A stretch of 64,000 nucleotides of DNA from Trypanosoma brucei (lineage: Eukaryota): contig CH464491.1 in the NCBI GenBank assembly GCA_000002445.1, forward strand, positions 1,888,001-1,952,000. Reading direction: 5' to 3'. The first letter of the stretch is position 1; every line of letters begins with the position of its first letter. A model generated the notes under the pieces. That model was not told the origin of the DNA. It worked only from the letters and a program-made list of their open reading frames with translations, and ran no database searches. The position numbers and the translations under genes are program-made. Below are positions 1-38,380 of this stretch, one piece after another.

Positions 1-639
1 AAAGAATGGAGGAATATGAGTGACGAAGCTGCTTAAGGCAAGAACCGCCCCACTTCCCGTTGCCTTCGGGACAGGCAGTGTAGACGTCGTCACATTGAAG
101 TCCGGGGGTGGTGGTGGGTACTTCCTTAGGCCAACGTCATAATAAAAGTCCACAGGCTGGATTTCGTTCACCCCCTCCACCACCAACCGGCCTGCTGGTT
201 GCACGAAATAACCTCCTTCGATATCTGGAGGGGGAACCTTGCTGCTGTTGCTTTTTACCTCTTCCTCTTTCCTTTCTGGCGTTTCAGTTTCCTGTGGCGG
301 AGTGCCTTTGTAAAACCGGAGACCACTTCTATCCAGGCAAATACCAAGTCCTTTTGCCTTTGATAGTGCGGCTGCCAGTGTCTTGTGGGGACGCACGTGC
401 TGACGACGGCTCTCGAGAGACAAGTCGTTGTACAGAGACCCGACGGACATCCACGTCCCGTCTGGTATGCGGTCCAAAATCTCTTGTAACTCACACACGA
501 GTGCGGGATGAACTGTGTCAATCGTGGAGGAGTTGTCAGTATTGCTGCACCACCGCCTTTCCACCGGGGTACGGAAGGGCGGCACCGCAAGACCAGCTCT
601 GAGGCATCTGATGGACTGTGCAAAGAAGTGGCACAGCAT
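1..639 (-). CDS. Hypothetical protein, 3'-truncated by the window edge. The ORF is open from Met at 639 through position 1 and is absent from the supplied ORF track because no stop lies inside the window.
   Basis: Manual translation of the minus strand in the frame 639,636,...: MLCHFFAQSIRCLRAGLAVPPFRTPVERRWCSNTDNSSTIDTVHPALVCELQEILDRIPDGTWMSVGSLYNDLSLESRRQHVRPHKTLAAALSKAKGLGICLDRSGLRFYKGTPPQETETPERKEEEVKSNSSKVPPPDIEGGYFVQPAGRLVVEGVNEIQPVDFYYDVGLRKYPPPPPDFNVTTSTLPVPKATGSGAVLALSSFVTHIPPFF... This is >210 codons with no stop. In-frame stops lie just upstream at 744-742 and 735-733. A purine-rich plus-strand tract at ~955-1015 (polyY in mRNA sense) fits a splice-acceptor region. Same strand as every other gene here. 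Confidence 0.4.
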   Translation of the reverse strand, partial: MLCHFFAQSIRCLRAGLAVPPFRTPVERRWCSNTDNSSTIDTVHPALVCELQEILDRIPDGTWMSVGSLYNDLSLESRRQHVRPHKTLAAALSKAKGLGICLDRSGLRFYKGTPPQETETPERKEEEVKSNSSKVPPPDIEGGYFVQPAGRLVVEGVNEIQPVDFYYDVGLRKYPPPPPDFNVTTSTLPVPKATGSGAVLALSSFVTHIPPFF

Positions 640-11632: not shown

Positions 11633-11888
11633 AAGGGAAACACCGAATGAAGCACTAAAGAAAAGCTCTTAATTTGTAACGAGACAAACCCTCTAGCGGA
11701 ACAAGTTTAGGCAGCAGAACACATGCGCCATAAGGTAGTCAAAGACACAAAAGACCCAAGGTGAAAGGTACACCCAGCCACATAGGAAAGTTGTAGACGA
11801 TTCAACATGTAGCTGCATTTGTGTGAGGCTAGTTTGATTAACCACTGCCCCACGCACACCCGTTGAATGTGCTCTGTACATTGGTTTC

Positions 11889-13310
11889 TCATAGAATTGA
11901 CGTCTCCTTACTCGGATCGGGTGTGGGCTCTGTCCGACTCACGAGAGTCGCCGGCTCGGGTGTTGGGACGACCAAAACATGTTGCTTTGTCATCCCGAGA
12001 AGGGCAAGCTGCAATTCCTCAACTACGGTGGAGGCTATCACAATCACATCTGTCTTGCGCTGCTGTAAGAACTTCACAACTTGAATCGGGACACGCGTTG
12101 CTGTGGGTTCAGTTACCTGTTTGGTTGCGTGGAGTTGGCATACCGAAACCTTTGGCCATTCATCCTCCTGATGAGCGTCTTGCTCTTGGGTGACAGCAGG
12201 GCCCTCCGTCGCGGTGGTGGGGTTGGCATCGGCAGCACCCTCCGTTGTGCTCGGAACCATGCTCTCTGCCATGGGCTGTGCCTCTTGATTTTGCGGCTGC
12301 TCTTCATTTCCCTTCGGTGCTTGCTGCTCCTGTTTTGGAGAGATGAGAGACTCCGCGTTAATACTGCCTTCTTGGCCCTGAAGCAGGCGCTCAAGGGTCT
12401 GAGTGTAAAGTTCTATTTCTTCAGGTGGTGTACATCCCTCGGCTATTACCACAGCACAAACCACATCACCGCTACCCTCACGACAACGCCCCAATGCATA
12501 CTGGACAACGCTACAATCCCGTATGAGCGCGCCCTCCTCACCTGGGCGTGGTAGCAGCACAACAACATGACGTAACGCCGTAGTATTGAGCCTCAACGTG
12601 GTGCCGTTACCCTTAATGAACCACAACGGGTACGTTTGACGTATTTTGCTGAGAACTGCCCTACTCACATGTCCAACACTAATATATTTGTTTTCCGTGG
12701 TGTTACCAGCCCCGAGAAGAAGTGCACCGGCATTGTGATGCTTCAGGCGGTCTTCTGCGTACTGTGCAATAATGCCAGCACGTCTCCTTTCCACCTCCTC
12801 CGCCAACTCGCGTGCGGCCGCTTCTAATTCTTCCGTTGTCTGTTCCGGTGCAGCCTGTTGGTGATGTTCTGCATCTCTTTTCCCTGACATTCCCCCCCTT
12901 GTGGAGAGTCGTTGCCGCGAACCAGGGCGAGGTGGATCCGCCCCGTGGGATATTTCCATTGATGCCCTTATCGACCTCGGTGTGTTAAGTGGTGTTTCTT
13001 GGAGTGCCATGGTCTCTAGTTTATAGTTGAGAGTATCGCGTGTGGCCTTGCTTCCCATGATGGTTTCCAATGTCTTGTGAATTGCTATAGAAGGCGGAAG
13101 TCTCTTCGCAGTTCCTGCCTCTTCTGGGGGTTGTGGTACACTCTCAGGGCTATCAAACTGAAGCGGTGATGGCAAGCCACATCTTTCCCATATGTGCAGC
13201 AAAATGAGCTGCTCTCCTTCGTGTTGCCGCATCATGTAACCAGGAACAGAAGCCCAGCTCACTGCCTTGAGGGACGCCGGGCCGCCGTCACACATAACAA
13301 CAAAAGTCAT
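11889..13310 (-). CDS. Hypothetical protein. N-terminus weakly resembles a universal-stress-protein / adenine-nucleotide alpha-hydrolase-like fold. Acidic/Q-rich middle.
   Basis: 473-aa ORF. N-terminus MTFVVMCDGGPASLKAVSWASVPGYMMRQHEGEQLILLHIWE, then VVVLLPRPGEEGALIRDCSVVQYALGRC...VVCAVVIAEG, both with USP-like beta-alpha character. I could not assign a domain confidently. Confidence 0.5.
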   Translation of the reverse strand: MTFVVMCDGGPASLKAVSWASVPGYMMRQHEGEQLILLHIWERCGLPSPLQFDSPESVPQPPEEAGTAKRLPPSIAIHKTLETIMGSKATRDTLNYKLETMALQETPLNTPRSIRASMEISHGADPPRPGSRQRLSTRGGMSGKRDAEHHQQAAPEQTTEELEAAARELAEEVERRRAGIIAQYAEDRLKHHNAGALLLGAGNTTENKYISVGHVSRAVLSKIRQTYPLWFIKGNGTTLRLNTTALRHVVVLLPRPGEEGALIRDCSVVQYALGRCREGSGDVVCAVVIAEGCTPPEEIELYTQTLERLLQGQEGSINAESLISPKQEQQAPKGNEEQPQNQEAQPMAESMVPSTTEGAADANPTTATEGPAVTQEQDAHQEDEWPKVSVCQLHATKQVTEPTATRVPIQVVKFLQQRKTDVIVIASTVVEELQLALLGMTKQHVLVVPTPEPATLVSRTEPTPDPSKETSIL

Positions 13311-21095: not shown

Positions 21096-21184
21096 TGTAA
21101 CATACGGGTGGGATTACGGTACCCGCGATACTGCATTGGATCAATGGGTCGATGACGCGTGCATGTGCCTGTATATGCTTATGT

Positions 21185-21226
21185 ATATATTTATATATAT
21201 ATATATATATGTGTGTGTGCGTGTGG
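21185..21226. repeat. Compound microsatellite (TA)n(TG)n.
   Basis: tatatatatatatatatatgtgtgtgtgcgtgtg read directly. Confidence 0.9.
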
Positions 21227-22368: not shown

Positions 22369-23219
22369 TATATGGCCATAATATAGACAGCAGGAACAGT
22401 AATGTGGGAACAACCGCAGTAATTACTACAATATTTACCATTATAAGTTGATGGGTGTGTCCCAACTGCAACGAAAGTGAGGTGGGGGTCGGAAAATATA
22501 AGGAAGAAAAGAAAAGAAAAAAAAAGTGTCCTGTTTCTTTCCTCGTTACTTAGGCCATTCACTAACTTTTATTTCGGAGGAAGTTTGAGGCGAAAAATGC
22601 GCGTTTTGTCCCACTTTAGTCCTTCATTCCTTTTCCCTCCACCTCCCTTACGGAAGTGCGCAACGGCTCAATCAACAGTTCGCAAGTCCACTTTCACATG
22701 GTCATCACATAAACCCCGTGGGTTGATGTCGTGCACACCTCTCCCCCTTCACGCATGTCGACATACATTCACGAATATATGCATAAGTGCAAATGTAAGT
22801 AAATATACATTTAACTTCCTTTCTCATCTTTTCTTTACTTTCGTTCTGGCAACATTGCCTTCAGTCTTTTCGTAATACTCGTCCATTGGGTTCGCTTATT
22901 ACGCTTTGTTCCCCGTGCCTCGTCAGTTTTTTTTCCACATATATATATATATATGTATATATTTATATGGTCCTTCCTCTCCACCTTTATTTCCTTTCAA
23001 ACCTCTCTTTTTTTCATTTACTCCTCCCCTTCATGACCTCAAACCTTCAACCATTTGCTGCAGCTTTGCATTCCGGTGCGGATGAATTGTATACTTTTTT
23101 CTCTATTCCGCCCTTTCCTTTCCTTTCTTCTTACATTATTTACTCCTTTTTTTTTTCCTCTTGTCTCACCCATGCCTTTTCCCCTTTCTTTTAGCCGATC
23201 GGTCGATCTTTCTCTCTAA

Positions 23220-23220
<1 letters not shown>

Positions 23221-23250
<30 letters not shown>

Positions 23251-23256
23251 TAGATT
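23221..23256. repeat. (CA)n followed by (TAGA)n microsatellite.
   Basis: cacacacacacacacacacacatagatagatagat read directly. Confidence 0.9.
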
Positions 23257-23400
23257 CACTCACTCACATGTGTCATTTTCTTTCTGTTTTTGCTTTTGTT
23301 TTCCTCTTGGTGTATATAAACAAACATTTATATGTAGATGCAGATATATGTGTATATTTCTTTCTCTTTACGTACTTGCCTTAACCCACAAATTCAGACA

Positions 23401-23480
23401 CACGCATACACACACACACACACAAAGACACGTAAAGACACAAACACACACACACACACACACACAAAGACATACACGCA
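23401..23480. repeat. Interrupted (CA)n-rich tract in the 14-3-3 3' flank.
   Basis: cacgcatacacacacacacacacaaagacacgtaaagacacaaacacacacacacacacacacacaaagacatacacgca. Confidence 0.85.
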
Positions 23481-23572
23481 CGTCTTCTTTCCATCACGGT
23501 GCCGTTAGCCAACCGAGACCAGAAGGCAAGAAAGAAAGAAAGAAAGAAAAAATAGATGGAAATGAAGAAAAC

Positions 23573-24331
23573 TCACTCCAATTCCTCCATCGCAGTTCCG
23601 TCATCCCGTCCTTCCGGATGTGCGTCTTCTGTCCATAAGGCGAGGTTGTCACGCAACAGTTGCATGATGAGTGCCGCTTCTTTGTGTTGTTCCTCATCCA
23701 ACACATCCGGATCGCTCAGCGCCTCCTCAAAGGCCTCGCGTGCCAATTGGCAACCGCGGTCAGGACTCTTCAGGATTTCGTAATAGAAAACGGAGAAGTT
23801 TAATGCGAGTCCGAGGCGAATAGGGCTCGTCGGTTTCAATGAAGCGTTGTATTGCATTGCCTGCGTGTAAGCCTCCAGCGCCTTGTCCTTCTGTTCCTCT
23901 GTATTGGTTTCAATTTCGGCATAGTAACGGTGATAGTCGCCCTTCATCTTGAGGTAATACACTTTCGTCTCATCCGTCTCAGCATTAGGCAGCAGATGCT
24001 TCTCGATAAGTTCCAAAATGTCGATGCAAATGTCACTTAATTCCTTTTCGATTTGGCGCTTGAAGGCCTTAATGAGTGTAACATTCTTTTCTTTCTTCAG
24101 ATCCTCCTTCTGCTCCAGTGCGCTGATGCTTCTCCAACAGGCACGACGGGCTCCAATGACGTTTTTATACGCGACGGAGAGAAGATTGCGCTCCTCCGAC
24201 GACAGGACGGGGTTCAGTTTTACGACCCGTTTCATGCAAACGAGGATCTCGTCATACCGCTCACACTGTTCAGCGATCCGCGCCATGACTGTAAGCTGCT
24301 CGCGCTTTTCAGGTATTTGAAAGCCCGCCAT
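23573..24331 (-). CDS. 14-3-3: 14-3-3 protein, likely the T. brucei 14-3-3 II ortholog given its neighbourhood next to the PIF1/PIF2 helicase pair.
   Basis: Unmistakable 14-3-3 signature across the whole protein: ...[46 protein letters not shown]... [17 protein letters not shown] ... [35 protein letters not shown]. The ORF in the track starts 21 codons upstream ([21 protein letters not shown]), which is a purine-tract artefact. The real start is [13 protein letters not shown] at 24331. Confidence 0.92.
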
Positions 24332-24649
24332 TTTAACCGCTTGTTTTTTCTTTTGTTTTTTTTGTTGTTGTTGATATACGCGTTCTTTGTTCACTTATTT
24401 TCTTCTCTTTTTTTTTTAATATAGATTTTTTTTTGTTTATTCTACGTACTGTTATTTAAAGCAAAAATGGTAATAACAGCAACGCTGGTGTAAAGACCCA
24501 CCTTCACTTGATGCTATTCTCCTCTTTTTTTTTCTTTTTTTTTTCAAAAAAAAATGTTGACTTCACCTATTTTGACGTTCTCTTTCCTTCTCACGTTGCT
24601 CTATCCTTTTTATTATTGTTATTATTCTTTTTTTTCTCGATTGAATCTC

Positions 24650-25080
24650 TTTAACTACAGCACACGAAAAAAAAAAGAAGGAAACAACAACAACAACACG
24701 AGACGGTTGTGTACAATGATAATAATGAGAGCAACAGAAGGTGACAAAACAAACAAAAGAAAAACAGTAATAAACAAAATTTAAAGTAATAATAAAAATG
24801 ATAAAAAAAAAAAGGAAACATAAATAGAAACCGAAGATACCCATAATATGTAGGAATTTTAAAAAAAACAAAGGGAAAAAAGAAAAAAAAACTTCGAAAA
24901 ACAAAAAACAAAGTAAAGAAAGAAAGAATAATAACAAACAACAAAAACAACAAAAAACAAAAGAAATCGTAAATGGAAAAAAAAACAGCCATGAGAAAAA
25001 TGTGTGAAGGCAAGAAATATATGATGAGAGAGGCGAGAAAACAAAAAGGTGGAGAGGAAAACAAAAAAAAATAATTATAA
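24650..25080 (-). promoter_or_regulatory. Extended polypyrimidine region (mRNA sense) 0.3-0.75 kb upstream of the 14-3-3 start codon. Candidate SL-acceptor region implying a long 5'UTR.
   Basis: Plus strand purine-rich: cacgaaaaaaaaaagaaggaaacaacaacaacaacacg ... aaaaaaaacaaagggaaaaaagaaaaaaaaacttcgaaaaacaaaaaacaaagtaaagaaagaaagaataataacaaacaacaaaaacaac. Confidence 0.45.
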
Positions 25081-26856
25081 AAGGGTGTCGTATCATCGTT
25101 ACATTTCACGCAAAAAAATGTATGAATAGAGTAGAGGCCTTATTGCATTTACCATTATAATCATCACCATTATTATTATTATTATTATTCTTATCCCGTT
25201 CTTTTCTATTTGTGTGTGTGTTTTTTTTTTAATTTGATTTCGCAAGGGTTGCTCCATTCTCGGTACCAGCTTTTCTTTTTTTCTTTTTATTTCTTAAAAG
25301 AAATTTAAGTTTTGATATATATATATATATATATATTGTTTAAAAATTAATTGCCCCATTTTCCTTCTTCTTAATTTCTATATTCACTTTTGCCCCTGCT
25401 CCACTTCACCTCCGCACAACAAAACAACAACAGAAAGATACCGTTACAAATATGCAAACATTCCACACAGCCCGAAACCAACCGCGCTCAAACAAATAAA
25501 ATAATAACAATAATAATAATAAAGGAAACAACAAAAATACAACACGATATCATAATAATAAAGAACTCTATGGTATTTTCCCCCTTTCAACAGGTTTCTT
25601 TTAGCCAAAAATATTTTCATTTATAAAAAGGGGTAAAGAAATGACAAAACAAATCACAACAGGTTGGTAATGATGACTGCAGGTGTACGTTAAGTAAAAG
25701 GTTTTGTGGGCTTAAAATATGTTTGCATATGTTTTTCTTTTCTTTTTTTAACCACCTCTCTTTTCCTCCTCCTCCTCCTTTACGTTTGTGTTGTTGTGCG
25801 AAGTAAAGTGTGAAGTGAATTGGGAAGTGATGTGTTGTTATATAAATATATATATTTTTTATTTTTTTTATTTATTCGACTCCCTTCTTTTTTCTTTTTG
25901 TGTTTCCTCTCCGCCAATTGTAGAACCTCACTGATGTATTTTAACTTCTTTTTTTTTTTGCGTCTATGGTGCCACAGCGCTCATCGTATTGAAAAACGGT
26001 TCGCGCCGCGCGGGAGAAAAATTGAAAAAAAAACAATTGAAAGTGTTTGTGTTTATTTATTTATTATTTTTTTTTTGCGATTAAATTGTGTGTGTAAAAG
26101 TGAGTGAGTGAATGAATGAATGTGGATGTATATATATATGTGTATGTGTATGTGTCTATGGGGTCCTTTTACACATCCTCTGGCTGTTCCATTTACCAAT
26201 CTACAAAACAAAATAAAAATAAAGAGGAATCAACTGAATCACGCGCAAACACAAGACCAAAAATAAAAAATTAAAAAAAAGATAAAAATAAAAAAAAATA
26301 AAAAAGATAATTCGGCCGTTTCATGCAGCAGAATATGTAGAGGCTCTATATTTCGGATCCCTGAGGCGTATATATATATATATTTTTTCCTTCCCTCTTC
26401 TTCTTTTGTTCTCTCGTCCTTCTGAAATGTATAATGAACGAAGAAATATACGACCAACGGCTCCGAAGTGGAACATAAAACATAAAATAAAAGAAAACAT
26501 AAAAAAAACGAAGAGGGGAATACTTGTGTTTGCATATTCATATATAAATATATAAATATATATGTGCGTGTGTGATTCGTAAGAGGGGAAGGAAATATAT
26601 GTTGGACTTCCACCAAAGAAACAGTCCGTCATCTAAATTGTAAGGGGAAGGGAAGAAGAGGTGTAGTAAAACAAAAAACAAGAAAGGGTGGGGAAATGTA
26701 CAAAGGGAAGGGAGAAACTTATCCTTTAAAACAAAATAATAATAATAAAAAAACATTAGACAAAACACGATAAAAATACAAGGGTAAGGAAGAACTGTAA
26801 CAAACAATAAATTAAAAAAAAAACAACAACAAAGAAACAAAGTTTTTAATTCGATT

Positions 26857-29646
26857 CTATTCCAACGACTCACCAGAGGAGGCCTTGGTGGTGTCAGTCT
26901 GTTTTGCACCCTCCACCGCCATTTTCTTTTGGCGGCGCTCGTGCATACGTATGGTGCGCTCAGTCTGCTTGATCAGCTTTCGCAACCGTCGTGACACAAC
27001 CATCGAATGTTCTAACGACCCTTTAACAGGACCCGAAAGACCTAACTGCTGTACGGGAACACTTCCACCTTCTTTTGCTGCTCCATTTTGCAAGTACCGG
27101 TCTAAAGAAGTCCCCTGACGCCGTAAATGATAAACCATATCATTACAGCGCTTCCATGAGGACACGGGGTACTCGGCTAACGATGGCAAATTGTCTACGG
27201 TATTAAGTTCACGGTCAAACTTGACACAAGCCTCATTTGCCAGCACCATCTTGGGGTCAAAAGAAGACATACTAAGTTGCTCTGGGTTGCGTACACGACT
27301 CATGGCGACGTATAACAAATGCTCACAGGGCCACATGCGGGACAGTTCGAGATGGACACGACCAACAAGCGTTAGTCCCTGCACCTTATGGACGGTGAAG
27401 GCATATGCTAAACTAAGGGGCAGGGATACGCTGCTTAGACTGTAGTACTGGGTAATGGGATTTCCACCAACCAAAAATTCCCACGGCGGGACAACAATCG
27501 TTTCACCACTATGGAACTTAACTACAGGTAAAAGCGGTACGGGCATGCCGCATTCCATCGTGCAGTAAATACGATACCTATCGACGCAGCGGTTCACACG
27601 TTCGCAACGAAGGGCAACAGGAATATTTTCCATACTACACTCCACGAAGTCCACTACTGTACCAATACTCCCGTTGACTAAACGTGAAGTGAGGTTGGTA
27701 CGCAAAAGGACGCGGCACCCCTTCTTTAGCGTAAGCGGTTGCGCGATGGGGTGCTTTGCCATAAGCCTCTGCAGACATTCCTCGTGCTCTGGCGTGTGCA
27801 GACCGTCTCCGCTGGGTATAATCTCCGTCACAGTGGCTCCTATGTCTAAGTCATTGATCAGGCCTGCAACTTCTAGGAAACGCTCGCGTATCGCGTCACG
27901 CCAAGCAACACTTTCGCTCTGCGGAAGGTAAACGCGTACGGCATGACCATCTTCGTAGATACGGTAGGCAGACACCATGGATGCCCTAGGGATGTCAACT
28001 GTGGCTTGCAGCAATCCACGCAAGTGCTTTGTAAACTCCTCCACTTTGAAATCCTTCGTTGTCCTCATGAGGAGTGTTGCTGTGGTGTCACACCTAAGAG
28101 CTGTTATACCCGTCTCCGGCGTAAGGGTGACAGCATCTCCGGGAAGGCGTTTCAGTTCTTCTTCATTCGCTGTGTTTACTTCCTTGTTGGTTGGAAGAAG
28201 GTTCACGGCTGCCGGTACCATAGTTCCCGGTGGAAGCTGTTCAACAGACGCTGTCAAACTTTCCGGCACAAGTCCTACACGCATTTGTTGCAACGCATCT
28301 GCAAAAAGACTGCTCTTGGCTTGGCGAACCTGAGTTTCCAGGCGGATCTTCACGAATTTCTCCCGGAAAGTAGTGGAATGGATTATCGGGGGCTCATTGA
28401 TCACACCTAGCTGCAGGAAATCACCACAGAGGATGATTTGCACCCCGCCAAAGGGCACGTCCGGCGCACCAGCTTCCTCACGGAGAACCCTATCGAACTC
28501 CTCAAACATTTTCTTAGGCAACATAGACACTTCATCAATGATGATAGCGTCGTAGCTCAATAGGTGGTTCTTTCGCACGAAGTCACCCTGGGCGGAAACT
28601 CCCATGGCGTGGTGGAAGGTTGAACCTCCAATGTGGCAACCAGCAACACCTGTGGTGGCCGTCATTGCAACGCGCAATCCCTCCGCTTGCATCCGTCTAC
28701 ACAAGGCGCGTAGCAAAACCGTCTTTCCTGTACCAGCACTGCCACCAATGTACATCAAGTGGCCTTTCAGGGCCAGGTTAATGACCTTCTCCTGCTCCTC
28801 GTTAAGATCAACCGCAACAAACTCATCGGCCAAGCCACCGTCTAGGATATTCTGCAGGTCCGTATCGCCCACAGCATTGACAACGGCGGCGTAACGGCTG
28901 TGCGTTAGGTTGTTAATCTTCACCTGCATCATCTGCTGAATCGCTTCGGCTGGATCTTCAACTCTGCGGTTGCGTAGGATCACCCCGAGGGCACGGATAA
29001 TTGTTACGGGCCAGTTGGAGGGGAGCGTCGCCGTACCCTTCCTCATTCTCTGCGCGAGGTCCCGGAGGACATCGGGCTTCTCAACGTACAGCTGCCGTTT
29101 GTTGTTGACACCAAACCCTATGCTCTTCAAGCATAAGAAGGATGGTGATGTCTCCGATGTCATACGGCCAGTCAGTGCGTTGTACACCAACGTCGAATGA
29201 AGGGGTAGTTGAGGCTCACCGTCTATTGGCCCCATCGTTTCCTCTTGTGGCTGAATTTGTGGTGGTGTGGCTGCCAGGGGCTCCTCCTTAACTTCAGCGG
29301 CGCGCACCTCCAGAGTGGCAGGGGGTTGGATGGCGTCTGGCATGTTTTCCTGAGGCAGTGCAACGCCTTCCCGCGCCCCCGTCACTGAAGTTTGCGCGTC
29401 TGTGGGTGTTGAGAGGGTCGTCGTTGCTTTGGAACGTCGCTTTGAGCCCCTCTTGGGCTCACGCTTGCGCTCCTTCTCCGTTCCACTGGTGAAGCGCATG
29501 GCACAAAATAGTGCACCGGCGTTGTAGTCAACAGGCATCAGTGCGGTGCGAACGAGTCCGACAGAAGCGCTTTTACGTGGTAGAGTTGAAGCTGATGTAC
29601 CCGACAACGCCACATTGTACGCTGGTTGGAGGAGCCGACGCAACAT
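26857..29646 (-). CDS. PIF1-family 5'-3' DNA helicase with an N-terminal mitochondrial-targeting-like presequence (TbPIF1-like; adjacent to the 14-3-3 gene).
   Basis: Walker A GSAGTGKTVLLRALCRRMQAEG. PIF1 motifs [61 protein letters not shown], and a C-terminal [18 protein letters not shown]...[14 protein letters not shown]-terminus MLRRLLQPAYNVALSGTSAS... is R-rich and amphipathic. Confidence 0.9.
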   Translation of the reverse strand: MLRRLLQPAYNVALSGTSASTLPRKSASVGLVRTALMPVDYNAGALFCAMRFTSGTEKERKREPKRGSKRRSKATTTLSTPTDAQTSVTGAREGVALPQENMPDAIQPPATLEVRAAEVKEEPLAATPPQIQPQEETMGPIDGEPQLPLHSTLVYNALTGRMTSETSPSFLCLKSIGFGVNNKRQLYVEKPDVLRDLAQRMRKGTATLPSNWPVTIIRALGVILRNRRVEDPAEAIQQMMQVKINNLTHSRYAAVVNAVGDTDLQNILDGGLADEFVAVDLNEEQEKVINLALKGHLMYIGGSAGTGKTVLLRALCRRMQAEGLRVAMTATTGVAGCHIGGSTFHHAMGVSAQGDFVRKNHLLSYDAIIIDEVSMLPKKMFEEFDRVLREEAGAPDVPFGGVQIILCGDFLQLGVINEPPIIHSTTFREKFVKIRLETQVRQAKSSLFADALQQMRVGLVPESLTASVEQLPPGTMVPAAVNLLPTNKEVNTANEEELKRLPGDAVTLTPETGITALRCDTTATLLMRTTKDFKVEEFTKHLRGLLQATVDIPRASMVSAYRIYEDGHAVRVYLPQSESVAWRDAIRERFLEVAGLINDLDIGATVTEIIPSGDGLHTPEHEECLQRLMAKHPIAQPLTLKKGCRVLLRTNLTSRLVNGSIGTVVDFVECSMENIPVALRCERVNRCVDRYRIYCTMECGMPVPLLPVVKFHSGETIVVPPWEFLVGGNPITQYYSLSSVSLPLSLAYAFTVHKVQGLTLVGRVHLELSRMWPCEHLLYVAMSRVRNPEQLSMSSFDPKMVLANEACVKFDRELNTVDNLPSLAEYPVSSWKRCNDMVYHLRRQGTSLDRYLQNGAAKEGGSVPVQQLGLSGPVKGSLEHSMVVSRRLRKLIKQTERTIRMHERRQKKMAVEGAKQTDTTKASSGESLE
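27275..27434. repeat. 160-nt segment inside PIF1-like gene A, ~97% identical (5 mismatches) to 30965..31124 in PIF1-like gene B. Duplicated/homogenised tract.
   Basis: Direct comparison: agttgctctgggttgcgtacacgactcatggcgacgtataacaaatg[c/a]tcacagggccacatgcgggacagttcgagatggacacgacc[aa/gg]caagcgttagtccctgcaccttatg[g/a]acggtgaaggcatatgctaaactaaggggcagggatacg[c/a]tgc. The flanks on both sides are unrelated at nucleotide level. Confidence 0.9.
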
Positions 29647-29744
29647 AACGTATGCACGAGTAAAAGGCTCTTTAACTCGATTTCCTCGGTGGATGTCGTT
29701 GGAATAGTATCAGTTGCTGCTGCTGGATCGTTGTAAAAAGGACA

Positions 29745-29812
29745 ACAGCAACCGGAAAAAAGGGGGAAGAGAGGGAATTAAAAATAAAATAAAAAAAGAA
29801 AAGAAAATAAGT
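29745..29812 (-). promoter_or_regulatory. Polypyrimidine tract (mRNA sense) ~100-170 nt upstream of the PIF1-like (26857..29646) ATG.
   Basis: Plus strand: aaccggaaaaaagggggaagagagggaattaaaaataaaataaaaaaagaaaagaaaataag. Confidence 0.5.
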
Positions 29813-30714
29813 GCTTTTATAGACGCTTAGAGGTAGCTCGTATATATACCTCTTTGTAGCTTGATCTAGTGGGAATGTTTATGGTGTATCTTTTTTGCTT
29901 TTTTTTGGCTTTAAAGATCTTTTCGTTTTCTCTTTTTTTTAAAAAAAACTTGCTGTATGGTTAATCTACTGTTTGTGCGTCTAAGAATAATAACTTTTCG
30001 TATTAGGCATAGGTTGTTACATAAAGAAAAGAGAGATGGAGGTGCAGGTACGAGTGCAAGTGCAAGTGCAAACAAACGGACATACACAAGTACGAAAACG
30101 TATGGAAGGTTAGCATAGTCCATGGTACCAATTTTTAGTCTAAATTACACGCGAACAACAAACGAAACAAAAAAATATATACGAGGGGAGGAATGAAAAG
30201 AAACGCCAAAAATAAACACGAATTATTCCACCACTCCCGTACACAGCACGTGTAGTCACTGCGAATGGATTTACAAATGTTGTTAGAGCTTCTTTGCCAC
30301 TTTTGAGAGAACTTCGCTGGAATGGGAATGGGCAAGAGATAGTAACAACAGTAGTAACGACAAAATCCTTCTCCCTTCCTGTGGCAAGCCATCTTAAGAC
30401 ATACGAAAGGAAGCAAGCGTGGGGAGACTTAGAGAAGGTATTTTTTTTTTTTTTTGTGACGGAGAGGGAGGAAAACGGTGGGAAAAATCAGAAGCACATA
30501 CCCTCCGCAATTTTCAAGGGATCACTGCACCAAATAAAGAATAAGCGGATAAACTGTACAGTTAATGACACAACTATATGGCACCAATAAAATAAAGCAC
30601 ATGAGAGAACCCATGTATTGTCGTCCCTCAACCTTGTGCACGCATCCAGAAGCAGTAAATAGCAGAGCACGCGCATTTTACCCGGTATGTTTGTGTGGCA
30701 ACCCGGCTATGATT

Positions 30715-33700
30715 TTACGGTGTTGCTTCCTTCGCTTGCTTTATCATTGCTTCTTTCAGTTTCGCAGCCTTCTTTTGCTTGGATTGCTTTGCCTGCTCCC
30801 TTTTCCGCTGGAGTGCCGCCTTACGTCTACTGGGTGTGCGCTGCCAGCTTGCCTGGAAGAAGTGTGGCAAAACCCGCACTTGTTCAACCGGAGGCAACGA
30901 GTCATCGAAGAGGAGACATTCAGACGCACATCGCACGAGACTGTTGTGAAACGATGACACCGTCAGTTGCTCTGGGTTGCGTACACGACTCATGGCGACG
31001 TATAACAAATGATCACAGGGCCACATGCGGGACAGTTCGAGATGGACACGACCGGCAAGCGTTAGTCCCTGCACCTTATGAACGGTGAAGGCATATGCTA
31101 AACTAAGGGGCAGGGATACGATGCCTACATGGTAGTGGTTCGTGTTTGACAGCCCTCCAACTGAGAAAAGAACGGGTGGGACAACAATCACGCGCCCCCC
31201 TCCGAAATCTACCTCGGGTGCAAACGCAGTGGTGAAGCCGTGCTCGTACCGTAGGTACTCGGCGTAATTTTCAACTGCGGCTATCCTTCCTGGTGTGTTT
31301 ACAAATCGCGGAAGGTGCTTTGCACTAAGTTCTTTGAACCCGACAACTACACCAAGACTACCATTTACGAGACCTGGGGCGAGGTTTGTACGCAACATCA
31401 CTTTAGCACCCTTCTTGAGGCGTAGCGGAGACGCCATGGGGTGAAGCTCTGCATATCGCGTTAGCGTGTAATCGTCTGCATCGGTATGCAGTCCGTCAGG
31501 TGAGTCAAGGATTTCTCTCAAGAAAACCCCAAGCCCACACGCCGGAAGCCATGTTTCCAAACCACGCAGATGCAGCGCAAGGTCCCGCATGTCCTTCTCA
31601 CTCATGTCTTGTGGTATACGAACTCGAAATGCGAAGGCATCAACAAACAGTTTGTACAGCACAATGTACCGCTGACCTACAACCGGTAGCGTATAATCAC
31701 TGGCATAAGGTGTTTTCTGAAGGAAATCAAGCACATACTGCTCTAGCGCCCTGGTTAACTTATGCGTATCTATCATTTTCGTGTCTTTCACCACAGCCTC
31801 CAGTATATATGTTGCAGTCCACCGTCCAACCAGTGATGGAGCTTGCATTTGTGCGGGATATACGACAAGATCACTGGGAAGCTTGTCCAGCTCTGCTTGA
31901 TTCACCTCATCCACTTCCTTGTTCGTGGGGAGCAACTTCACCGCGCCCTTTCCCTCACCCTCTAACCATTTCGCTGTTTCTGGTGGGGATAGGAATTGAA
32001 CCGTGTCTTGCAGATCATGCGGCACTGTACCCCGTCGCAATTCCTGTAACTGCTGGGCGAAAATACTACTCCCTTCCTGCCGCACAACCCGCTGGAGCTT
32101 GAGCATTGCAAAATTACGGCGGAACACTGACGAGTGGACAAGCGATACGGAACAGATCGCACCCAGTTGGAGGAAATCACCAGACAAGATAACTTGCACG
32201 CCACCGAAAGGTAAATCCACACCGTTCGCCCGGCGGAGCTGGAATTCAAGTGACTCAAATAGCTCCTTTGATAGCATGGAAACCTCATCTATGATAATCA
32301 CATCGAACTCCTTCAACTCCGCTCGCCGTGTAAACTCACCATACACATTCACACCGAAGCAGTGATGTAGCGTTGCCCCATTCAAACGCCTTGCTGCTAT
32401 GCCTGTTGTCGCTGTGGTTGCTACCGTAAGGCCTCGGCTGACAAGTTCTTGCCTTATTACCCGCAGAAGAAGAGACTTTCCAGTCCCTGCCCCTCCACCA
32501 ATATACGTGTTGTAGCCGCGAAGCACAAAGTCTACTACACGCCTCTGTTCTTCGTTTAAGTCAGGGTAGCCAAGCAACCGTTCATGGTATGTCATTTCAC
32601 CGTTTATAGCAACCTCATCGCCAGCCGGGTTCGCCTCTTCCGTTTTCGTGTCGGGTTCTCCCTTAGTAACGTTTGCCACGCACGAACGCTTCACACGCTG
32701 GTAGTGCAGCTGTAGCAGCTCATGAACTCGGGATATCATCTCTTCCATAGGCTGGTCTTTTAGCAGTACGTGTTGTAATTGGTTAAAAAGGGAACTACGC
32801 CACGCAGATGGCCAACTAACCTCTTTCTCACGGAGTTTATCACGAAACTCCACCAGTGCATGCGGATCAACTACGGAAAGCTCCTTCTCACTGGAACGAA
32901 CTCCTACACCAAGTACAGAGAGCGCGCGGATACTGGCCGACGAGCTTTTCACTACCCGCTGAGTAAAAATATTGTACACAAGCGTGTCCCCTTCTTCCCA
33001 AGTAACGGTGCTACTGCTTCTCGCTAAAGGTGATTGTGCCACAACCACCGGTTGTTGCTGAACATATATCTGCTTTTCCTTAGTATCGGCAAGAGGGGCT
33101 GCGACCGTATCAGCCTCCAGTTTAACTAATATTTTCCTAGCCGGCCGTGATCCAAGAGAATATCCCTCTTGGTTTGCATTGCTGTGGCGTCCACATTCCC
33201 CACTACTACTCAGCACCCGGGCTATTGTACCAACCAACGTGTTGGAAGAGTCGGGAGGTTTATCACATTTTCCAGGAGTTCCCGTCCCAACCGAGTCAGC
33301 AGCAGCACCACCGCGTGTGGCTCGCCTAACGACACAAATGAGCGGCGGTTTCTCCACAGGAGGTCCAGGCGGAAGCGCTACCGTAGGAGCAGCTGCAACT
33401 CCGGATGTACTAACACCACTAACCTCAGCAACATCGACTGAGCTATTAATCCCACCAGCACCAACACCACCGCATCCAGTGGCAATGGTTGCGATACTTC
33501 TGCTTCCATGCCGTATGGGCACATCACCAGGCGTTGTCCAGCCGTTTAATGATCGTACATGTTGGCACCGACGAAGTCCAGCAGGGCTGGAGCCATGCCA
33601 CGTTCCCACGCTTGATGATGCGGTAACGGCGCAAGGCTCTTGCCCCGAAACCTGAGGAGGGTGACGTGAGAGCCGAACGGCTGAGGTGCGACACTTTGAC

Positions 33701-33861
33701 ATCCACGACGGTACCGCAATCAGTGATAACGGGGTAGACAACAATCGCGACTGGACGTGGCGGTTGTGGGAAGCTGGGAACAATTTTTCGTCGAGAAGCC
33801 TATGGTGGGAGGTGCGCATGAACCGCCCTAAACTGCTCCAAACTACCGTCTTTGAAGACAT
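30715..33861 (-). CDS. PIF1-family 5'-3' DNA helicase, tandem paralog of the previous gene (TbPIF2-like). Long low-complexity N-terminal extension.
   Basis: Walker [24 protein letters not shown]. Motifs [112 protein letters not shown]-terminus [23 protein letters not shown].. is presequence-like. Confidence 0.9.
30965..31124. repeat. Partner copy of the 160-nt near-identical tract (in PIF1-like gene B).
   Basis: See 27275..27434. Encodes the shared peptide [20 protein letters not shown](V/A)[13 protein letters not shown](E/D)[16 protein letters not shown]. Confidence 0.9.
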
Positions 33862-35243
33862 TGGTCCGACTGCACTATCACCGCAAACTGCTGTGGTTTA
33901 CTTGAAAAACAAACCCCAAACCACACGCTCACGTTAACCCGCTTTCTTTCCTCTTCTCCACGTGTCTTTCTTTTGTTTGCTTTCACACACCCTCCTCAGC
34001 TCTACGCCGATGTCTTAAGGTGTTAAATTCCGTTGTTTCTCTTTATTCCTTCTCCAATCTCACAGTCTTCCTGTATTTTCTTTTCTGTTTTTCTCTTCAC
34101 GGTAGCACGTCTGTCTCTTTTCCACTGCACACACCTTTGAATTGGGAATTTGTGAGTTAACCCGTCTGAGGAGATTATTTGAAAAAGGTACGGCCGCGAC
34201 ACGAAGTAACAATTTTAAAAATTCGGCCGTCTTATATATATACAAATGTAAATAAATAAATATATATATATATCTATGTCACTTCTATAAAAGATATGTG
34301 TCTATGAGCGTATGACGGGAGGTGCTGACTCGTGCCCTTCTTTCTTTTTTTACTTTGTTTCTCCACGAATAGGTGTACAAAACTCACACACCTTTTCCCC
34401 GTTATCCTCTGCCTCCTCCTTCGTCCCTTTTAATTTGAATGAAGGAGGAGGCAGAGAGTTTGTGCGGGTCTCTGAGTCTATATGGAGCCGCACAGCTTGT
34501 CGCCTGCGGCTGTCCGTGGGTGCGTTGGTGGTAGTAGTGGTGAGAATCCACTCTTACCTTTTTTCCCTCTTCTCGGACTGCGCTCTGTTTTACGCAGTTA
34601 CAGCTCCTACCCATGCACAATTATTGTTACTAACCCCTCTGTTGAGTGGGTTGCGGTCAAATGCAGTTCCTACCGCCTCCTGAGGGCTGCGGTATCACCA
34701 CTCGCCGCTGGAGCCTATATACACTGTTTCCGTTTATTTATTTATTGTTGTTGTTGTTCAAAAACAAATGAGGATAAACAGAGGCAAGAAGGTATATTTG
34801 CAGGTGGAGATTAAACAAAGCTGAGTGATGAGACAAAGAGTGGTCAATTTGCAGAGTACACATGAAACAACACCGCGGCCCCTTAGAAAGTCAAGCAAAA
34901 GTAGTCATAATCAAAGCAAATTCAACGCTTTTATTACACAAATGTAAACGTACTTTTGCCTCTCCCTTCCATTTGAGGGGGAATACGTATGTTTACAGCT
35001 AGTCTCCTCCAAATCTTATTAAAACAACTGAATGCCACGAAACGGTACACGCGGTTACAAAAAAGCAACAATGATACGGCGTTTGCACTTCACACTAAAA
35101 GCAACATTCTGTACATGAAGCATACCTCTCGGGAGTTCAAAAAAAAAAAAAACAAGAATCGGGAATAGATACCCCAATACGAGGAAAATTAAGGAACGAA
35201 AATTCAAAGTAATAGACCCCAAAACAGCTCCACACACGCACAT

Positions 35244-35280
35244 ATATGTATATATATATATATATATATGTATATACATA
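35244..35280. repeat. (TA)n / TA-rich microsatellite.
   Basis: atatatgtatatatatatatatatatatgtatatacata. Confidence 0.85.
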
Positions 35281-35629
35281 TGTGCGTGAGACGAGAGAAA
35301 CGAAAAAGAAAAATAACCCCAAAAGTGATGTGAACTCTAGAAGTGGGAGCGTAGCAACGCTTAGCGCATGGTGGAGCTATGTTAGACCACAACTTTAACG
35401 CCTTTCTACCTTTGCTCAACCATTTGCAACAACAACATGTACAATTTTCAATTCCCGCGTGTGCTTTTCCTACACGTTTAATCGGTTTGTTTAACGGTAA
35501 CACCACTGGTCATGCTATATTTGCGGGGAAATGGGTACGCACGGGACTTCTCCCAATATTAAAAGATAAGGTGTAATTAACATGCAAACAACCAAGGAAG
35601 TAGACCTCCATCGAGGACATGTGGAGGTG

Positions 35630-38380
35630 TCAAACGGCAGGTGTTGCTTCCGCCCTTTCCTCACTCTCACGTCCAAAACATTGCGATGCGGCACCAGAAA
35701 CGGAAGCCCTCGCCCGCTTTTTCACGAACTTCGCAAATGTGAGAATGCTGTCAAGTTGCATCACCGAAAGCGCGTTCACAACGTAACCTGGAAGTAAACC
35801 CTCGGGGTCAGCTGCTATACATCGGGTCACTCGCACTCCTTCCAGACCATCATCACCAACTGCTACTTCAGCTAACACACCAAATGCGAAAACACGCGCA
35901 CGTACGAAACCTGCTAAAGTTGGTACCTCACTCGGAGCATCCACAGAAGTATGTAGAAACATGGGTTTACCTCCTTCGAGACCCATGGCAACGCGCTGAT
36001 CTTCGCTTGGGTAGAACGAGACGGCGGTACGTGTCACGACATCACGCGCCGAAATTCCCCAAAAAGGGGAACTAAACTTTGTGTGATAAATGTGAACGTC
36101 GGAAGATACCTTTCTCACCAGCACTTTTGCCTCCACCATGTTGTCCATTACACTAACCAAATGAGGGTCATTCACAACTGAATCCACATCCGCCAGGGTG
36201 GCTCGAGGAATGTGTACGACCACCTTTACCGCCTTTTTATCCGACCACTGCGTGTCTGCAGTCCACAGCGTCGCCCCTTTCTTTTGCGACACAAAATCCC
36301 ACTTGCACTTCAAGAAAATTTCCTTGATCACATATTCGGCTATCTGCAGTGCACCATTGTTTTCCTCACACTTGGGAATGTTCTCTGCTACCCCATCCTG
36401 CACATGTGCTGGGGGAGTGGTGCACACCGCAGAGCGGACAGGAGACACATGCAACGATGTGGTGCGCTGTCGGTCTTCTTTCGGTACCGCCGTGCGGATT
36501 TCAGCACCACTTGTACCGAGTAGCTCCACTATGGCATCCGCCTTACACGATAGTTGTTTAGTCAACTCGTGACGCGTACTTTCCGGAAGGTTAGTACTTG
36601 AAGTTATGGTATAGCAAGCGCGCAACCTAAGAGATCCGTCTTCACGCTCGGACCCAGCAATGTCGTAACTCCACGTTAGCAGGCCCTCATCTTTGGCAAA
36701 TCCAAGTAAGGAAGGCAGTGTGATGGGTGTTCTCATCGATTTGATGGCGGGGTCTGCTGAAGGTGGCGACTCCGCACTGCTCTCGGCGCCAGCCAAACTC
36801 TGCACTGCGCTTTGCTCTCCTTGCTGTGGTCCCACCGGGAAGTCAAGTCCACAGGAAGCATTCGTATCCGTACGCAGCGACTCCCGTGCACCGGCCAACA
36901 TGTACACTGTAGAGAGAGTGAACTCGCTTCCATCTTTAGTGCTTACAAGTGTTTGACGACTCAGCGTTTTGTTGCATCGGAAGAAATAGTTCCCCTGCCT
37001 CTCGCTACGCACTGCGTTAGCCAGTACGGCCTGTAGCGAGTTTACACTCCCCTGGGGGACATCAACCTCGACAAAGATCGTTGTCGTGTTCGTTGTGCCA
37101 CTTCTCTCCCAGGCTCCGCTGTCTCCCACCAAGCCGTCTCCCCGCAGCCATTCACGCGACCGTAGTGAAGGCGTTGATGGTTGGCGGTTTGCAAGTGAAT
37201 TGCGGTCGCAGCGTTCACCGAAGAAGGCGGTACCCCCTGCCGCTGCATTCGCTTCCCGTCGAACTGGACTCCCGGAATTGTGTCCGGAAAAGGCTCCGGT
37301 GCACACGTTACTACCCGACGAAAGCAGCGAGTAATTGAACCCACAACTCGCTGCAGACTCAGTTTTGGAGGAAAGGGGCTTCGTTCTTCTGACCAGTGGA
37401 GTCCCTATTAGCCGCCTGAATCCTGTGTGAAGGAGTGATGCAATTATCAGCGGCGGTATCACGTGCTCAAAAATATTAATCAACGTCCACTGCGGTGCCA
37501 ACCACACGACAAGCCAATGCAGACACACAACCCCAGACACGAAATGGATAACGTTTTTAGATACATTCATGACGAGAAAATTCGTCACATAAAGTATCCT
37601 AGCCTTCCCTTCCCTTTCTTCCTTTTCAGTCATAAACTGCCGACACCGCAGTAAACCCATTACCAGGGAAATGATAAAAATAAACGACCACTGCAATACT
37701 TGACACCACCACCCAGCAGCCACAACGGTCACATACGCAGCGGTCTCGAAAGGATGGGTCCAATCCCACATTTCCATGATACGTATGAGGCAGGCATCGT
37801 AGGCATCTGCGCTACTTCCCCCTTGTACGGGAAGACACGTGAACTGGGGGCTCGCACTCAGGTCGGAGAGTGGCGAGTACTCAGTTGCATTTTCCCACGC
37901 TAGATGGCTTCCCCCAATTCCTGTCCAGTTGGGGCAAACGGGGGAGCGCTGAAATGGGCTCAACTCACTCCCCTGATGTCCAATGGAGGAGGCGCTGCTC
38001 TGCTGGGAAACTCCAAGGCCCCAATTCCCGCCGCACGGAGGCATCCCCTTTGCCTTCAACTCATCCCAATCCCTCATGATTTCATCCCGTGAGTCAGACG
38101 TGGCCAACACCAGTCGCATACGGGGGCCTGTACTTTCCTCAGCAATGTTTCTCCCACTACCATCCGTCATCGACTGATAGTCTACCCGATTGGATGAGCG
38201 AATGATGCGATATTTCTTGAGATCCGCTTCACCGTAAAACAAGCGGTGGACGATTCGCTTGTTCTTTCGCATTCCCTCACAGGTGCGCTCTTGCACGCAT
38301 AACTGCATCTGAGGGCCTCCGGCAATAACTTCCCATGAGCGGAAAGACCTGGAAGGTACCGGGTGGTGTAGGATAGTCAT
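35630..38380 (-). CDS. Multi-pass membrane protein with a C-terminal START/Bet-v1-like (lipid-binding) domain. Otherwise hypothetical.
   Basis: 916 aa. Several hydrophobic helices in the N-terminal third (e.g. VVAAGWWCQVLQWSFIFIISLVMGLL; IHFVSGVVCLHWLVVWLAP). The C-terminal ~220 aa carry START-like features (KCKWDFVSQKKGATLWTADTQW...; FWGISARDVVTRTAVSF...; GYVVNALSVMQLDSILTFAKFVKK). The domain assignment is tentative. Confidence 0.55.
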   Translation of the reverse strand: MTILHHPVPSRSFRSWEVIAGGPQMQLCVQERTCEGMRKNKRIVHRLFYGEADLKKYRIIRSSNRVDYQSMTDGSGRNIAEESTGPRMRLVLATSDSRDEIMRDWDELKAKGMPPCGGNWGLGVSQQSSASSIGHQGSELSPFQRSPVCPNWTGIGGSHLAWENATEYSPLSDLSASPQFTCLPVQGGSSADAYDACLIRIMEMWDWTHPFETAAYVTVVAAGWWCQVLQWSFIFIISLVMGLLRCRQFMTEKEEREGKARILYVTNFLVMNVSKNVIHFVSGVVCLHWLVVWLAPQWTLINIFEHVIPPLIIASLLHTGFRRLIGTPLVRRTKPLSSKTESAASCGFNYSLLSSGSNVCTGAFSGHNSGSPVRREANAAAGGTAFFGERCDRNSLANRQPSTPSLRSREWLRGDGLVGDSGAWERSGTTNTTTIFVEVDVPQGSVNSLQAVLANAVRSERQGNYFFRCNKTLSRQTLVSTKDGSEFTLSTVYMLAGARESLRTDTNASCGLDFPVGPQQGEQSAVQSLAGAESSAESPPSADPAIKSMRTPITLPSLLGFAKDEGLLTWSYDIAGSEREDGSLRLRACYTITSSTNLPESTRHELTKQLSCKADAIVELLGTSGAEIRTAVPKEDRQRTTSLHVSPVRSAVCTTPPAHVQDGVAENIPKCEENNGALQIAEYVIKEIFLKCKWDFVSQKKGATLWTADTQWSDKKAVKVVVHIPRATLADVDSVVNDPHLVSVMDNMVEAKVLVRKVSSDVHIYHTKFSSPFWGISARDVVTRTAVSFYPSEDQRVAMGLEGGKPMFLHTSVDAPSEVPTLAGFVRARVFAFGVLAEVAVGDDGLEGVRVTRCIAADPEGLLPGYVVNALSVMQLDSILTFAKFVKKRARASVSGAASQCFGRESEERAEATPAV

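Follow-up and report, generated by a model that had tools for sequence, protein, structure and literature searches.

Two tandem genes of Trypanosoma brucei for mitochondrial DNA helicases raise the question of how paralogues that diverged in ancient times, have distinct functions and are both essential come to share one short tract of almost identical DNA. In the window (the whole 64-kb stretch of DNA that was analysed), TbPIF2 (30715..33861, 1048 aa) and TbPIF1 (26857..29646, 929 aa) are the upstream and downstream members of a tandem pair of open reading frames on the minus strand, with an intergenic spacer that the ORF coordinates place at 29647..30714 of the same strand. Both proteins belong to the Pfam family PF05970 (PIF1) and score well above its curated cut-off of 25.9 bits (TbPIF1: 101.3 bits, E=8e-29; TbPIF2: 95.5 bits, E=5e-27). 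A review of kDNA, in the passages naming these genes, lists TbPIF1 as Tb927.11.6890, the helicase of minicircle replication, and TbPIF2 as Tb927.11.6900, the helicase of maxicircle replication (PMC10719067). No database record was found for the exact PIF1 protein of the window, and the entry of T. b. equiperdum was used instead (P0001, the best protein match, listed as 100% identical and differing at 3 of 929 residues when compared directly). Orthologues named PIF2 are found at the corresponding syntenic location elsewhere among the species. Outside the tract the two genes have about 49% DNA identity and 36% protein identity, and a repeat search of the 64-kb window returned no similarity between their surroundings besides the tract itself.

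Extent and composition of the tract

The tract lies at 27275..27434 in TbPIF1 (minus strand; CDS nt 2213-2372, codons 738-791) and at 30965..31124 in TbPIF2 (minus strand; CDS nt 2738-2897, codons 913-966), the two copies being direct repeats on the same strand with a spacing of 3690 bp. A preliminary description of this DNA had reported near-identity between these segments, and our recount likewise gives 155 matches in 160 bases, with mismatches at 27322, 27364, 27365, 27391 and 27431 and perfect runs of 47, 41, 25 and 39 nt. Relative to the PIF1 copy, the PIF2 copy carries a V to A replacement (V761A in TbPIF1 numbering, GTT/GCC), an E to D replacement (E775D, GAG/GAT), one synonymous difference (GTC/GTT) and one altered boundary codon. 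The mismatch at 27431 falls in the flanking codon 739 (S/I), and in codon register the homogenised block extends from V740 to Q790/L791 of TbPIF1. At an identity of 0.49, the gene-wide value, at least 155 matches in 160 would arise with a probability of 3e-41; at 0.72, that of the most similar 20-codon window elsewhere in the genes, the probability is still 1e-16.

The similarity is sharply confined. Identity collapses on both sides as first described, the adjoining 10-mers matching at 3-8 of 10 positions, and 20-codon windows reach 0.95-0.98 within the tract versus 0.23-0.72 elsewhere. The earlier figure of about 70% identity in motif regions applies to the best motif window (0.72), whereas identity over the full gene alignment is 49%. 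High identity occurs nowhere else in the genes, which argues against the pair being simply recent duplicates. Within the 64-kb window the tract is the sole repeat longer than 40 nt that is not of low complexity, and a search allowing 3 mismatches found no copies there beyond the two. At positions where both proteins have the same degenerate amino acid, T. brucei uses the same codon in 45 of 47 cases inside the tract and in 100 of 284 outside it (Fisher p=3.8e-16). As had been anticipated, homogenised silent sites occur only in the tract, in T. brucei as well as in a comparison of 10 species.

Both copies lie inside intact ORFs, and the island is also present in 10 other taxa. Between the window strain and T. 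b. equiperdum, the only two assemblies in this comparison, there are two single-base differences, both in the PIF2 tract. At one of them, PIF2 CDS position 2781 (T/C), the C corresponds to the PIF1 state; this single site is equally explicable as an ordinary mutation.

At the protein level, the tract aligns to residues ~445-505 of ScPif1 (5o6b; ...LPLMLAWSLSIHKSQGQTL...YVALSR..., E=1e-12) and comprises the block of motif V (..HKxQG..) and motif VI (..YVAxSR..) in domain 2A of solved Pif1 structures. PIF1-family SF1B helicases such as ScPif1 (5o6b) and human PIF1 (6hph) have the same block, and both trypanosome genes exceed the Pfam threshold; this membership characterises the genes and not the homogenisation of the tract. 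The tract peptide is nearly invariant over kinetoplastids in both paralogues. The block is clearly diverged at the protein level in further PIF paralogues of kinetoplastids, for example the PIF3-like protein P0059, showing that motif constraint alone does not enforce identity.

Recurrence across kinetoplastids

In all 10 named kinetoplastid species examined, which range from Trypanosoma to Bodo saltans, the PIF1 tract is nearly identical to the PIF2 tract of the same species. In a 132-nt core, the paralogues of one species differ at 0-4 sites, whereas 9-42 differences (median 29) separate species; T. vivax shows no difference over the 159 nt of its tract. Between species, the core distance averages 27.17 for pairs of the same paralogue and 27.22 for cross-paralogue pairs, so that no orthology signal remains in the core. 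The paralogues share 85-100% of codons in the tract versus 33-47% outside in these 10 species (p 1e-8 to 1e-18). Accordingly, in a neighbour-joining tree of the core the two paralogues of each of the 11 taxa group together, whereas a tree of the flank (571 upstream codons) separates a PIF1 and a PIF2 clade, each broadly resembling the species tree. Amino acid changes specific to a lineage are common to both of its paralogues: A to S in T. brucei, R to C in T. melophagium, K/D/K in Bodo, and T together with SISNF in Phytomonas.

Codon maps show abrupt tract boundaries. The comparison with other species, which the preliminary description had proposed as a way to see whether the boundaries vary, reveals endpoints that shift by up to ~25 nt (-17..169 in Phytomonas, 21..152 in T. 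theileri), and in T. vivax PIF2 the homogenised stretch extends through a PIF1-type SMSSF. Such differences among lineages point to independent events. T. theileri and T. melophagium differ from each other at 9-10 of 132 core sites, with 0-1 differences between paralogues in each, which dates conversion in these species to after their split. The window alone could be explained by a single recent conversion in the T. brucei lineage followed by five substitutions, but nine other species have their own homogenised versions with species-specific sequence and differing endpoints; a single event cannot explain this pattern, and we consider it very unlikely.

Among the trypanosomatids, T. brucei has the least homogenised tract (5 differences in 160). 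Its V/A and E/D differences are retained in both strains; D is likewise the residue in T. congolense PIF2. T. brucei also stands apart in base composition: tract GC3 exceeds the amino-acid-specific expectation in nine of the 10 named species (with z reaching 4.35 and exceeding 2 in six of them), T. brucei being the one without an excess. Taken together, the incomplete homogenisation and the missing GC3 excess suggest that conversion in T. brucei may be slower or partly counter-selected. The non-homogenised environmental kinetoplastid L010 has a weak tract excess (z=0.79), and an invariant-residue control outside the tract has none. Based on a single 50-codon block, the GC3 excess is suggestive of GC-biased conversion; it could also have another cause specific to the block.

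Constraint, codon preference and assembly as alternatives

Silent sites that are almost frozen between two copies within a genome could also reflect a nucleotide-level element embedded in the coding sequence, such as a structured RNA or a regulatory or protein-binding DNA motif, as the preliminary description had suggested in the form of an RNA element. Such an element would constrain synonymous sites between species as well, but orthologue silent sites diverge in the tract as in the remaining gene. The fraction of identical codons between orthologues is about the same in both (19 comparisons); T. brucei and T. cruzi orthologues, for example, use the same codon at 13 of 49 positions in the tract and 192 of 531 elsewhere. 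The identity within a genome is thus attributable to exchange and not to conservation. Conservation across the 10 species follows a period of three positions. RNAalifold gives a covariation term of +0.2; double changes occur in only 3 of the 31 pairs it predicts, and most pairs are invariant or broken. The sense strand folds no better than expected (z=-0.31). The antisense tract folds slightly better than shuffled sequences (z=-2.14, with 7 of 200 shuffles as good), but this signal is weak and has no support from conservation. With Rfam, a scan of 26500-34500 at E<=1 gave no hit within the tract. L010, furthermore, has retained the peptide but not the codons: only 22 of 42 codons are shared between its paralogues, whose blocks carry 8-9 paralogue-specific replacements. 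The suggested element is contradicted by these data and appears extremely improbable.

The codons of the two copies might instead have converged under purifying selection on the peptide combined with the codon preference of each species, with no exchange of DNA. The peptide is indeed almost invariant and several of the genomes have a strong GC3 bias. However, the 22 sequences have 75 invariant residues elsewhere in the genes, and there the paralogues share only 27-49% of codons, compared with 85-100% in the tract. T. brucei itself has a GC3 near 0.5 and thus little bias, yet shares 45 of 47 codons, whereas L010 shares barely half, and convergence on preferred codons does not account for lineage-specific replacements present in both copies. 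We therefore regard this explanation as exceedingly unlikely. A metagenome scan for the tract peptide in kinetoplastid loci yielded one locus, L013, whose match is 47% identical and was left out of the analysis.

That assembly or polishing (a collapsed repeat or mis-mapped reads) homogenised copies that truly differ is scarcely credible: the tract does disturb assemblies, as at the PIF1 tail of T. grayi, but 12 independent assemblies, produced by different projects, show the pattern with endpoints in the same codons across species, the T. brucei tract is found again with its boundaries and copy-specific differences in a second independent assembly, and unconverted copies would be flank-like and saturated at silent sites, making mis-mapping of reads between them unlikely.

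Recurrent conversion as the proposed cause, and comparable systems

Based on these sequence comparisons, we propose that the identity of the tract very probably results from recurrent ectopic gene conversion between the tandem paralogues, confined to the motif V-VI block. Gene conversion between the two genes, already favoured in the preliminary description, is supported by the homogenised silent sites, the within- versus between-species distances and the opposite topologies of the tract and flank trees. Of the two forms considered there, a discrete recent event or a recurrent process, the second is upheld and the first is not, the island having been homogenised independently in 10 species with varying endpoints. 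The island would predate the divergence of Bodo from the trypanosomatids and have been maintained from then on.

We propose the following hypothetical course, in which non-reciprocal homologous recombination, within a chromatid or between sister chromatids, would act on the same-strand PIF2 and PIF1 genes: (i) a break or stalled fork arises in or near one motif V-VI copy, and the other copy, 3.7 kb away, would serve as repair template; (ii) the heteroduplex would remain limited to the ~130-190 nt of sufficient remaining similarity, as identity in the flanks is only ~50%; (iii) conversions reaching the paralogue-specific flanks would be stopped by mismatches or purged by selection, the latter because the helicases have different essential roles in minicircle and maxicircle replication; (iv) strong purifying selection on the peptide would keep the copies alike enough for the next conversion, rendering the island self-sustaining. 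The pathway is presumably of the RAD51 type, the stable boundaries may reflect either the mismatch barrier or selection, and conversion itself may be GC-biased. In T. brucei, homologous recombination increases linearly as the homology lengthens from 50 to 200 bp, and mismatches hinder it (PMC1904282); this fits an island of such size between diverged flanks.

A further, tentative possibility, which we consider rather unlikely, is that the island is maintained as a shared module, conversion locking the motif V-VI blocks of PIF1 and PIF2 together for a common partner or substrate in the kDNA replisome. Three observations would fit such a role: slower evolution of the tract peptide than of the corresponding block in other PIF paralogues, the replacements accumulated in L010 in the absence of homogenisation, and the possible sign of GC-biased conversion in kinetoplastids. 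If it were true, conversion would amount to enforced co-evolution predating the split of Bodo and the trypanosomatids.

The shared perfect runs in the TbPIF1 and TbPIF2 mRNAs imply that RNAi fragments, probes, primers, CRISPR guides or homology arms containing the tract can hit both essential genes, and the block should be masked in phylogenies of kinetoplastid PIF helicases. The tract also misleads assemblers and gene callers. In T. grayi, PIF1 carries a tail identical to that of PIF2, which starts at the tract, continues past the stop codon and ends with the contig in a (TA)n run. It alone among the sequences looks artefactual: a long conversion, of 400 nt, or an unequal crossover was considered as the origin of this PIF1/PIF2 chimera and set aside in favour of a probable misassembly, because the identity extends so far. 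In one T. vivax assembly, the PIF2 ORF is intact but uncalled.

No prior report of the PIF tract was found in the literature searched (on TbPIF1/TbPIF2, gene conversion and tandem arrays; the Mol Cell 2009 paper on TbPIF1-8 lay outside this scope), and the tract is unmentioned where the gene names occur in the kDNA review PMC10719067. The PIF1/PIF2 island provides a natural experiment on the lifespan of a sub-genic conversion island between distinct essential paralogues, with one escape lineage, and bears on the interplay of conversion, purifying selection and possibly GC bias.

Tandem arrays of co-directional duplicates in trypanosomatid polycistronic units are mostly recent, highly similar dosage repeats. 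The same process as in the PIF pair operates in such arrays of T. brucei (PMC1855330) and in the beta-tubulin paralogues of Leishmania (PMC1533823). Jackson (2007, BMC Evol Biol 7:54, PMC1855330) reported that 21 of 47 T. brucei tandem arrays contain chimaeric copies and show putative partial conversion; a search of its text gave no hit for helicase, PIF1 or the old gene IDs. Unlike those arrays, PIF1 and PIF2 are an ancient, functionally distinct pair, each member essential, in which only an island of 130-190 nt is converted, persistently across the sampled Kinetoplastea. Sub-genic conversion islands in diverged paralogues, with selection on the flanks limiting the tract, are known from the models of Innan and Teshima and from the gamma-globin and RHD/RHCE genes. 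The PIF pair likewise has a sharp homogenised segment, inside which paralogues are closer than orthologues while the flanks keep the orthologous phylogeny. It differs from these examples in that the island covers the catalytic helicase motifs V-VI, spans a much deeper phylogenetic range and has apparently been escaped by one lineage, L010. The PIF1/PIF2 island is thus a new and unusually long-lived case of concerted evolution, an already known process, with an ordinary mechanism.

The tract shared by TbPIF1 and TbPIF2

TbPIF1 (929-aa ORF, 26857-29646, minus strand) and TbPIF2 (1048-aa ORF, 30715-33861, minus strand) both score above the Pfam cut-off for PIF1 helicases, and a comparison of the 929-aa ORF with PIF1 of T. 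brucei equiperdum shows 3 residue differences in 929. A kDNA review (PMC10719067) describes both genes as essential, with Tb927.11.6890 as PIF1, which acts in minicircle replication and sits at the antipodal sites, and Tb927.11.6900 as PIF2, which acts in maxicircle replication. A codon-aware alignment of 851 codons gives 49% nucleotide and approximately 36% amino-acid identity between the two. Two direct repeats located 3.7 kb apart, 27275-27434 and 30965-31124, nevertheless match at 155 of 160 positions (probability at background identity 3e-41); the five mismatches (27322, 27364, 27365, 27391 and 27431) leave mismatch-free runs of 47, 41, 25 and 39 nt. Identity in 20-codon windows is 0.95-0.98 in the tract and 0.23-0.72 everywhere else, and identical degenerate amino acids use the same codon at 45 of 47 positions in the tract versus 100 of 284 outside (Fisher p = 3.8e-16). 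The near-identical tract noticed in the preliminary description is therefore real, and no other region of the genes is comparably identical. Low-complexity sequence aside, the 64-kb window contains no other repeat that exceeds 40 nt. Intergenic (TA)n, (CA)n and A-rich runs (21160-21225, 23209-23490, 24730-24970, 35228-35295 and 59673-59760) explain every other repeat family reported in the window.

The tract peptide, V(S) followed by 19 residues, V/A, 13 residues, E/D and 16 residues, aligns with ...LPLMLAWSLSIHKSQGQTL...YVALSR... of yeast Pif1 (5o6b). It barely varies among the retrieved kinetoplastid orthologues, whether of PIF1 or of PIF2. In this family, the aligned yeast residues are SF1 helicase motifs V and VI. 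Other PIF paralogues, such as the PIF3-like protein P0059, carry a clearly diverged version of the block, so that motif constraint alone does not dictate the identity.

Gene order around PIF2 and PIF1 is kept from Trypanosoma to Leishmania (23573-24394 and 35630-38380, both minus strand). Upstream of PIF2 lies a protein of approximately 900 aa with a weak, sub-threshold START-domain match (E = 7.5e-4), and downstream of PIF1 a 14-3-3 gene (Pfam E = 7e-89); Bodo retains PIF2-PIF1, with 14-3-3 farther downstream.

Concerted evolution of the block in kinetoplastids

The syntenic locus was retrieved from 11 further assemblies, namely T. cruzi (L001), T. theileri (L002), T. melophagium (L003), T. 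vivax (L004, GCA_021307395.1 SOPI01000497.1), T. grayi (L005, GCA_000691245.1 contig JMRU01000088.1), Leptomonas pyrrhocoris (L006), Phytomonas EM1 (L007), Bodo saltans (L008), Leishmania donovani (L009), an environmental kinetoplastid from a metagenome (L010, GROS21-1_SAMEA9560961 scaffold_2610) and T. b. equiperdum (L012), and the tandem order PIF2 then PIF1 is kept in all 11. The block is near-identical between paralogues in every named species, with maximal ungapped segments of 132-187 nt containing 0-7 mismatches (0 of 159 positions differ in T. vivax); identity between the paralogues in the remainder of the genes is approximately 50%. The same-codon fraction in the named species is 85-100% in the tract versus 33-47% outside (p from 1e-8 to 1e-18).

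Within the 132-nt core, 0-4 sites differ between the paralogues of one species and 9-42 (median 29) between any two species, with mean between-species distances of 27.17 for same-paralogue and 27.22 for cross-paralogue pairs. In a neighbour-joining tree built from the core, PIF1 groups with PIF2 of its own taxon in 11 of 11 taxa; a second tree, built from 571 codons upstream, separates the PIF1 sequences cleanly from the PIF2 sequences, and the branching inside each of these clades largely matches the species tree. Lineage-specific amino-acid changes are common to both copies in T. brucei (A to S), T. melophagium (R to C), Bodo (R to K, E to D, R to K) and Phytomonas (S to T and an SISNF tail). 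Between T. theileri and T. melophagium, which are sister species, 9-10 core sites differ, against 0-1 between the paralogues of each, so that homogenisation postdates their split. Tract endpoints vary among lineages by up to approximately 25 nt, and the converted stretch in T. vivax PIF2 includes the PIF1-type SMSSF, which argues for independent events. These opposed tree topologies and the homogenised silent sites bear out the earlier proposal of gene conversion between the paralogues. Of its wording "recent or recurrent", the recurrent part holds and is extended to an ancient, lineage-wide process that spans Bodo to Trypanosoma and Leishmania with differing endpoints.

The deep-branching lineage L010 (tandem at 6190-9237 and 10001-12991 of its locus) serves as a natural control. 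In the core tree its two copies still group together, each at the end of a long branch; the peptide is largely kept, yet only 22 of 42 codons are the same, and 8-9 amino acids of the block differ between the paralogues. L010 thus shows the block without recent homogenisation and looks like a lineage that escaped from concerted evolution.

Among trypanosomatids, the T. brucei tract is the most diverged between copies. Across V740-Q790 there are two amino-acid differences, E/D (PIF1 27322, PIF2 31012) and the two-base V/A (27364-27365, 31054-31055), and only one synonymous difference. T. b. equiperdum has both replacements too, and the D is likewise present in PIF2 of T. congolense. That replacements outnumber silent differences invites the speculation that selection may hold these residues different despite conversion. 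Two synonymous sites of the PIF2 tract differ between two T. brucei assemblies; one toggles between the PIF2-specific and the PIF1 state, which fits a short conversion patch or a point mutation alike.

T. grayi PIF1 (P0009, 874 aa; L005 10001-12654) combines a PIF1 body with an exact PIF2 tail of 413 nt (0 mismatches), which starts in the tract, includes the stop codon and continues for another 29 nt, where the contig ends within a (TA)n run. The tract has probably caused a misassembly here, as repeats can; a real long conversion is possible. In T. vivax, an intact 1056-codon PIF2 ORF upstream of PIF1 (L004 5655-8822) is absent from the gene table, and the Y486 PIF1 model (UniProt, P0004, 981 aa) lacks a segment of approximately 56 residues with FGGVQIILCGDFLQLG that is present in the 1037-aa P0002 from another assembly; a faulty gene model or assembly is a more probable cause than a biological difference.

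Recurrent conversion and its rivals

We consider recurrent ectopic gene conversion between the direct repeats the best explanation of the tract likeness. A nucleotide-level constraint such as an embedded RNA element, also raised in the preliminary description, is not supported. The antisense fold of the tract deviates weakly from shuffles (z = -2.14), without backing from conservation, whereas the sense strand folds no better than its shuffles (z = -0.31) and an Rfam scan returned no match in the tract. Cross-species tract alignments show conservation with a period of three and an RNAalifold covariation term of +0.2, and between orthologues the tract keeps the same codon as often as the remaining gene does, in 19 comparisons (T. 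brucei/T. cruzi 0.27 vs 0.36; T. theileri/T. melophagium 0.77 vs 0.74). That protein constraint combined with codon bias yields the shared codons is contradicted by a set of 75 non-tract residues, each unchanged in 22 of 22 sequences, at which paralogues share only 27-49% of codons. Homogenisation by assembly artefact is contradicted by the recurrence of the pattern in 12 independent assemblies and by the reappearance of the T. brucei copy-specific differences in a second assembly.

Experiments in T. brucei (PMC1904282) found that homologous recombination becomes more efficient in linear proportion to homology length between 50 and 200 bp, reaches a plateau at approximately 200 bp and is hindered by mismatches. 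With its 130-190 bp and approximately 50%-identical flanks, the island therefore has the size expected to recombine and to self-limit. We propose that this mismatch barrier would act together with selection against the flanking residues of the other paralogue (SSV/GIV upstream, SMSSF/TVSSF downstream) to keep the boundaries stable, and that purifying selection on the peptide would preserve enough similarity between copies for the next event. Tract GC3 is higher than the remainder of the genes would predict for the same amino acids in nine of the ten named species, T. brucei being the exception (z reaches 4.35 in T. vivax and 4.06 in T. grayi); the excess is weak in the non-homogenised L010 (z = 0.79), and invariant residues elsewhere, used as a control, show none. 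Judged from this one 50-codon block, the excess may reflect GC-biased gene conversion in kinetoplastids.

Relation to known conversion systems

In the full texts searched on TbPIF1 and TbPIF2, PIF gene conversion and conversion in trypanosome tandem arrays, we found no description of the PIF1/PIF2 island. It is unusual in that it joins paralogues of deep divergence and different function, that it coincides with catalytic motifs V-VI, and that it persists from Bodo to Trypanosoma and Leishmania. It is a model case of practical relevance to the design of RNAi fragments and probes, to genome assembly and to helicase phylogenies. Other organisms also have sub-genic conversion islands whose limits are set by selection. 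The PIF1/PIF2 island is another case of a known process, not a new mechanism: the same process is seen in T. brucei tandem arrays, where Jackson 2007 (PMC1855330) describes partial gene conversion with chimaeric copies in 21 of 47 arrays, and in the Leishmania tubulins, for which concerted evolution is documented (PMC1533823).
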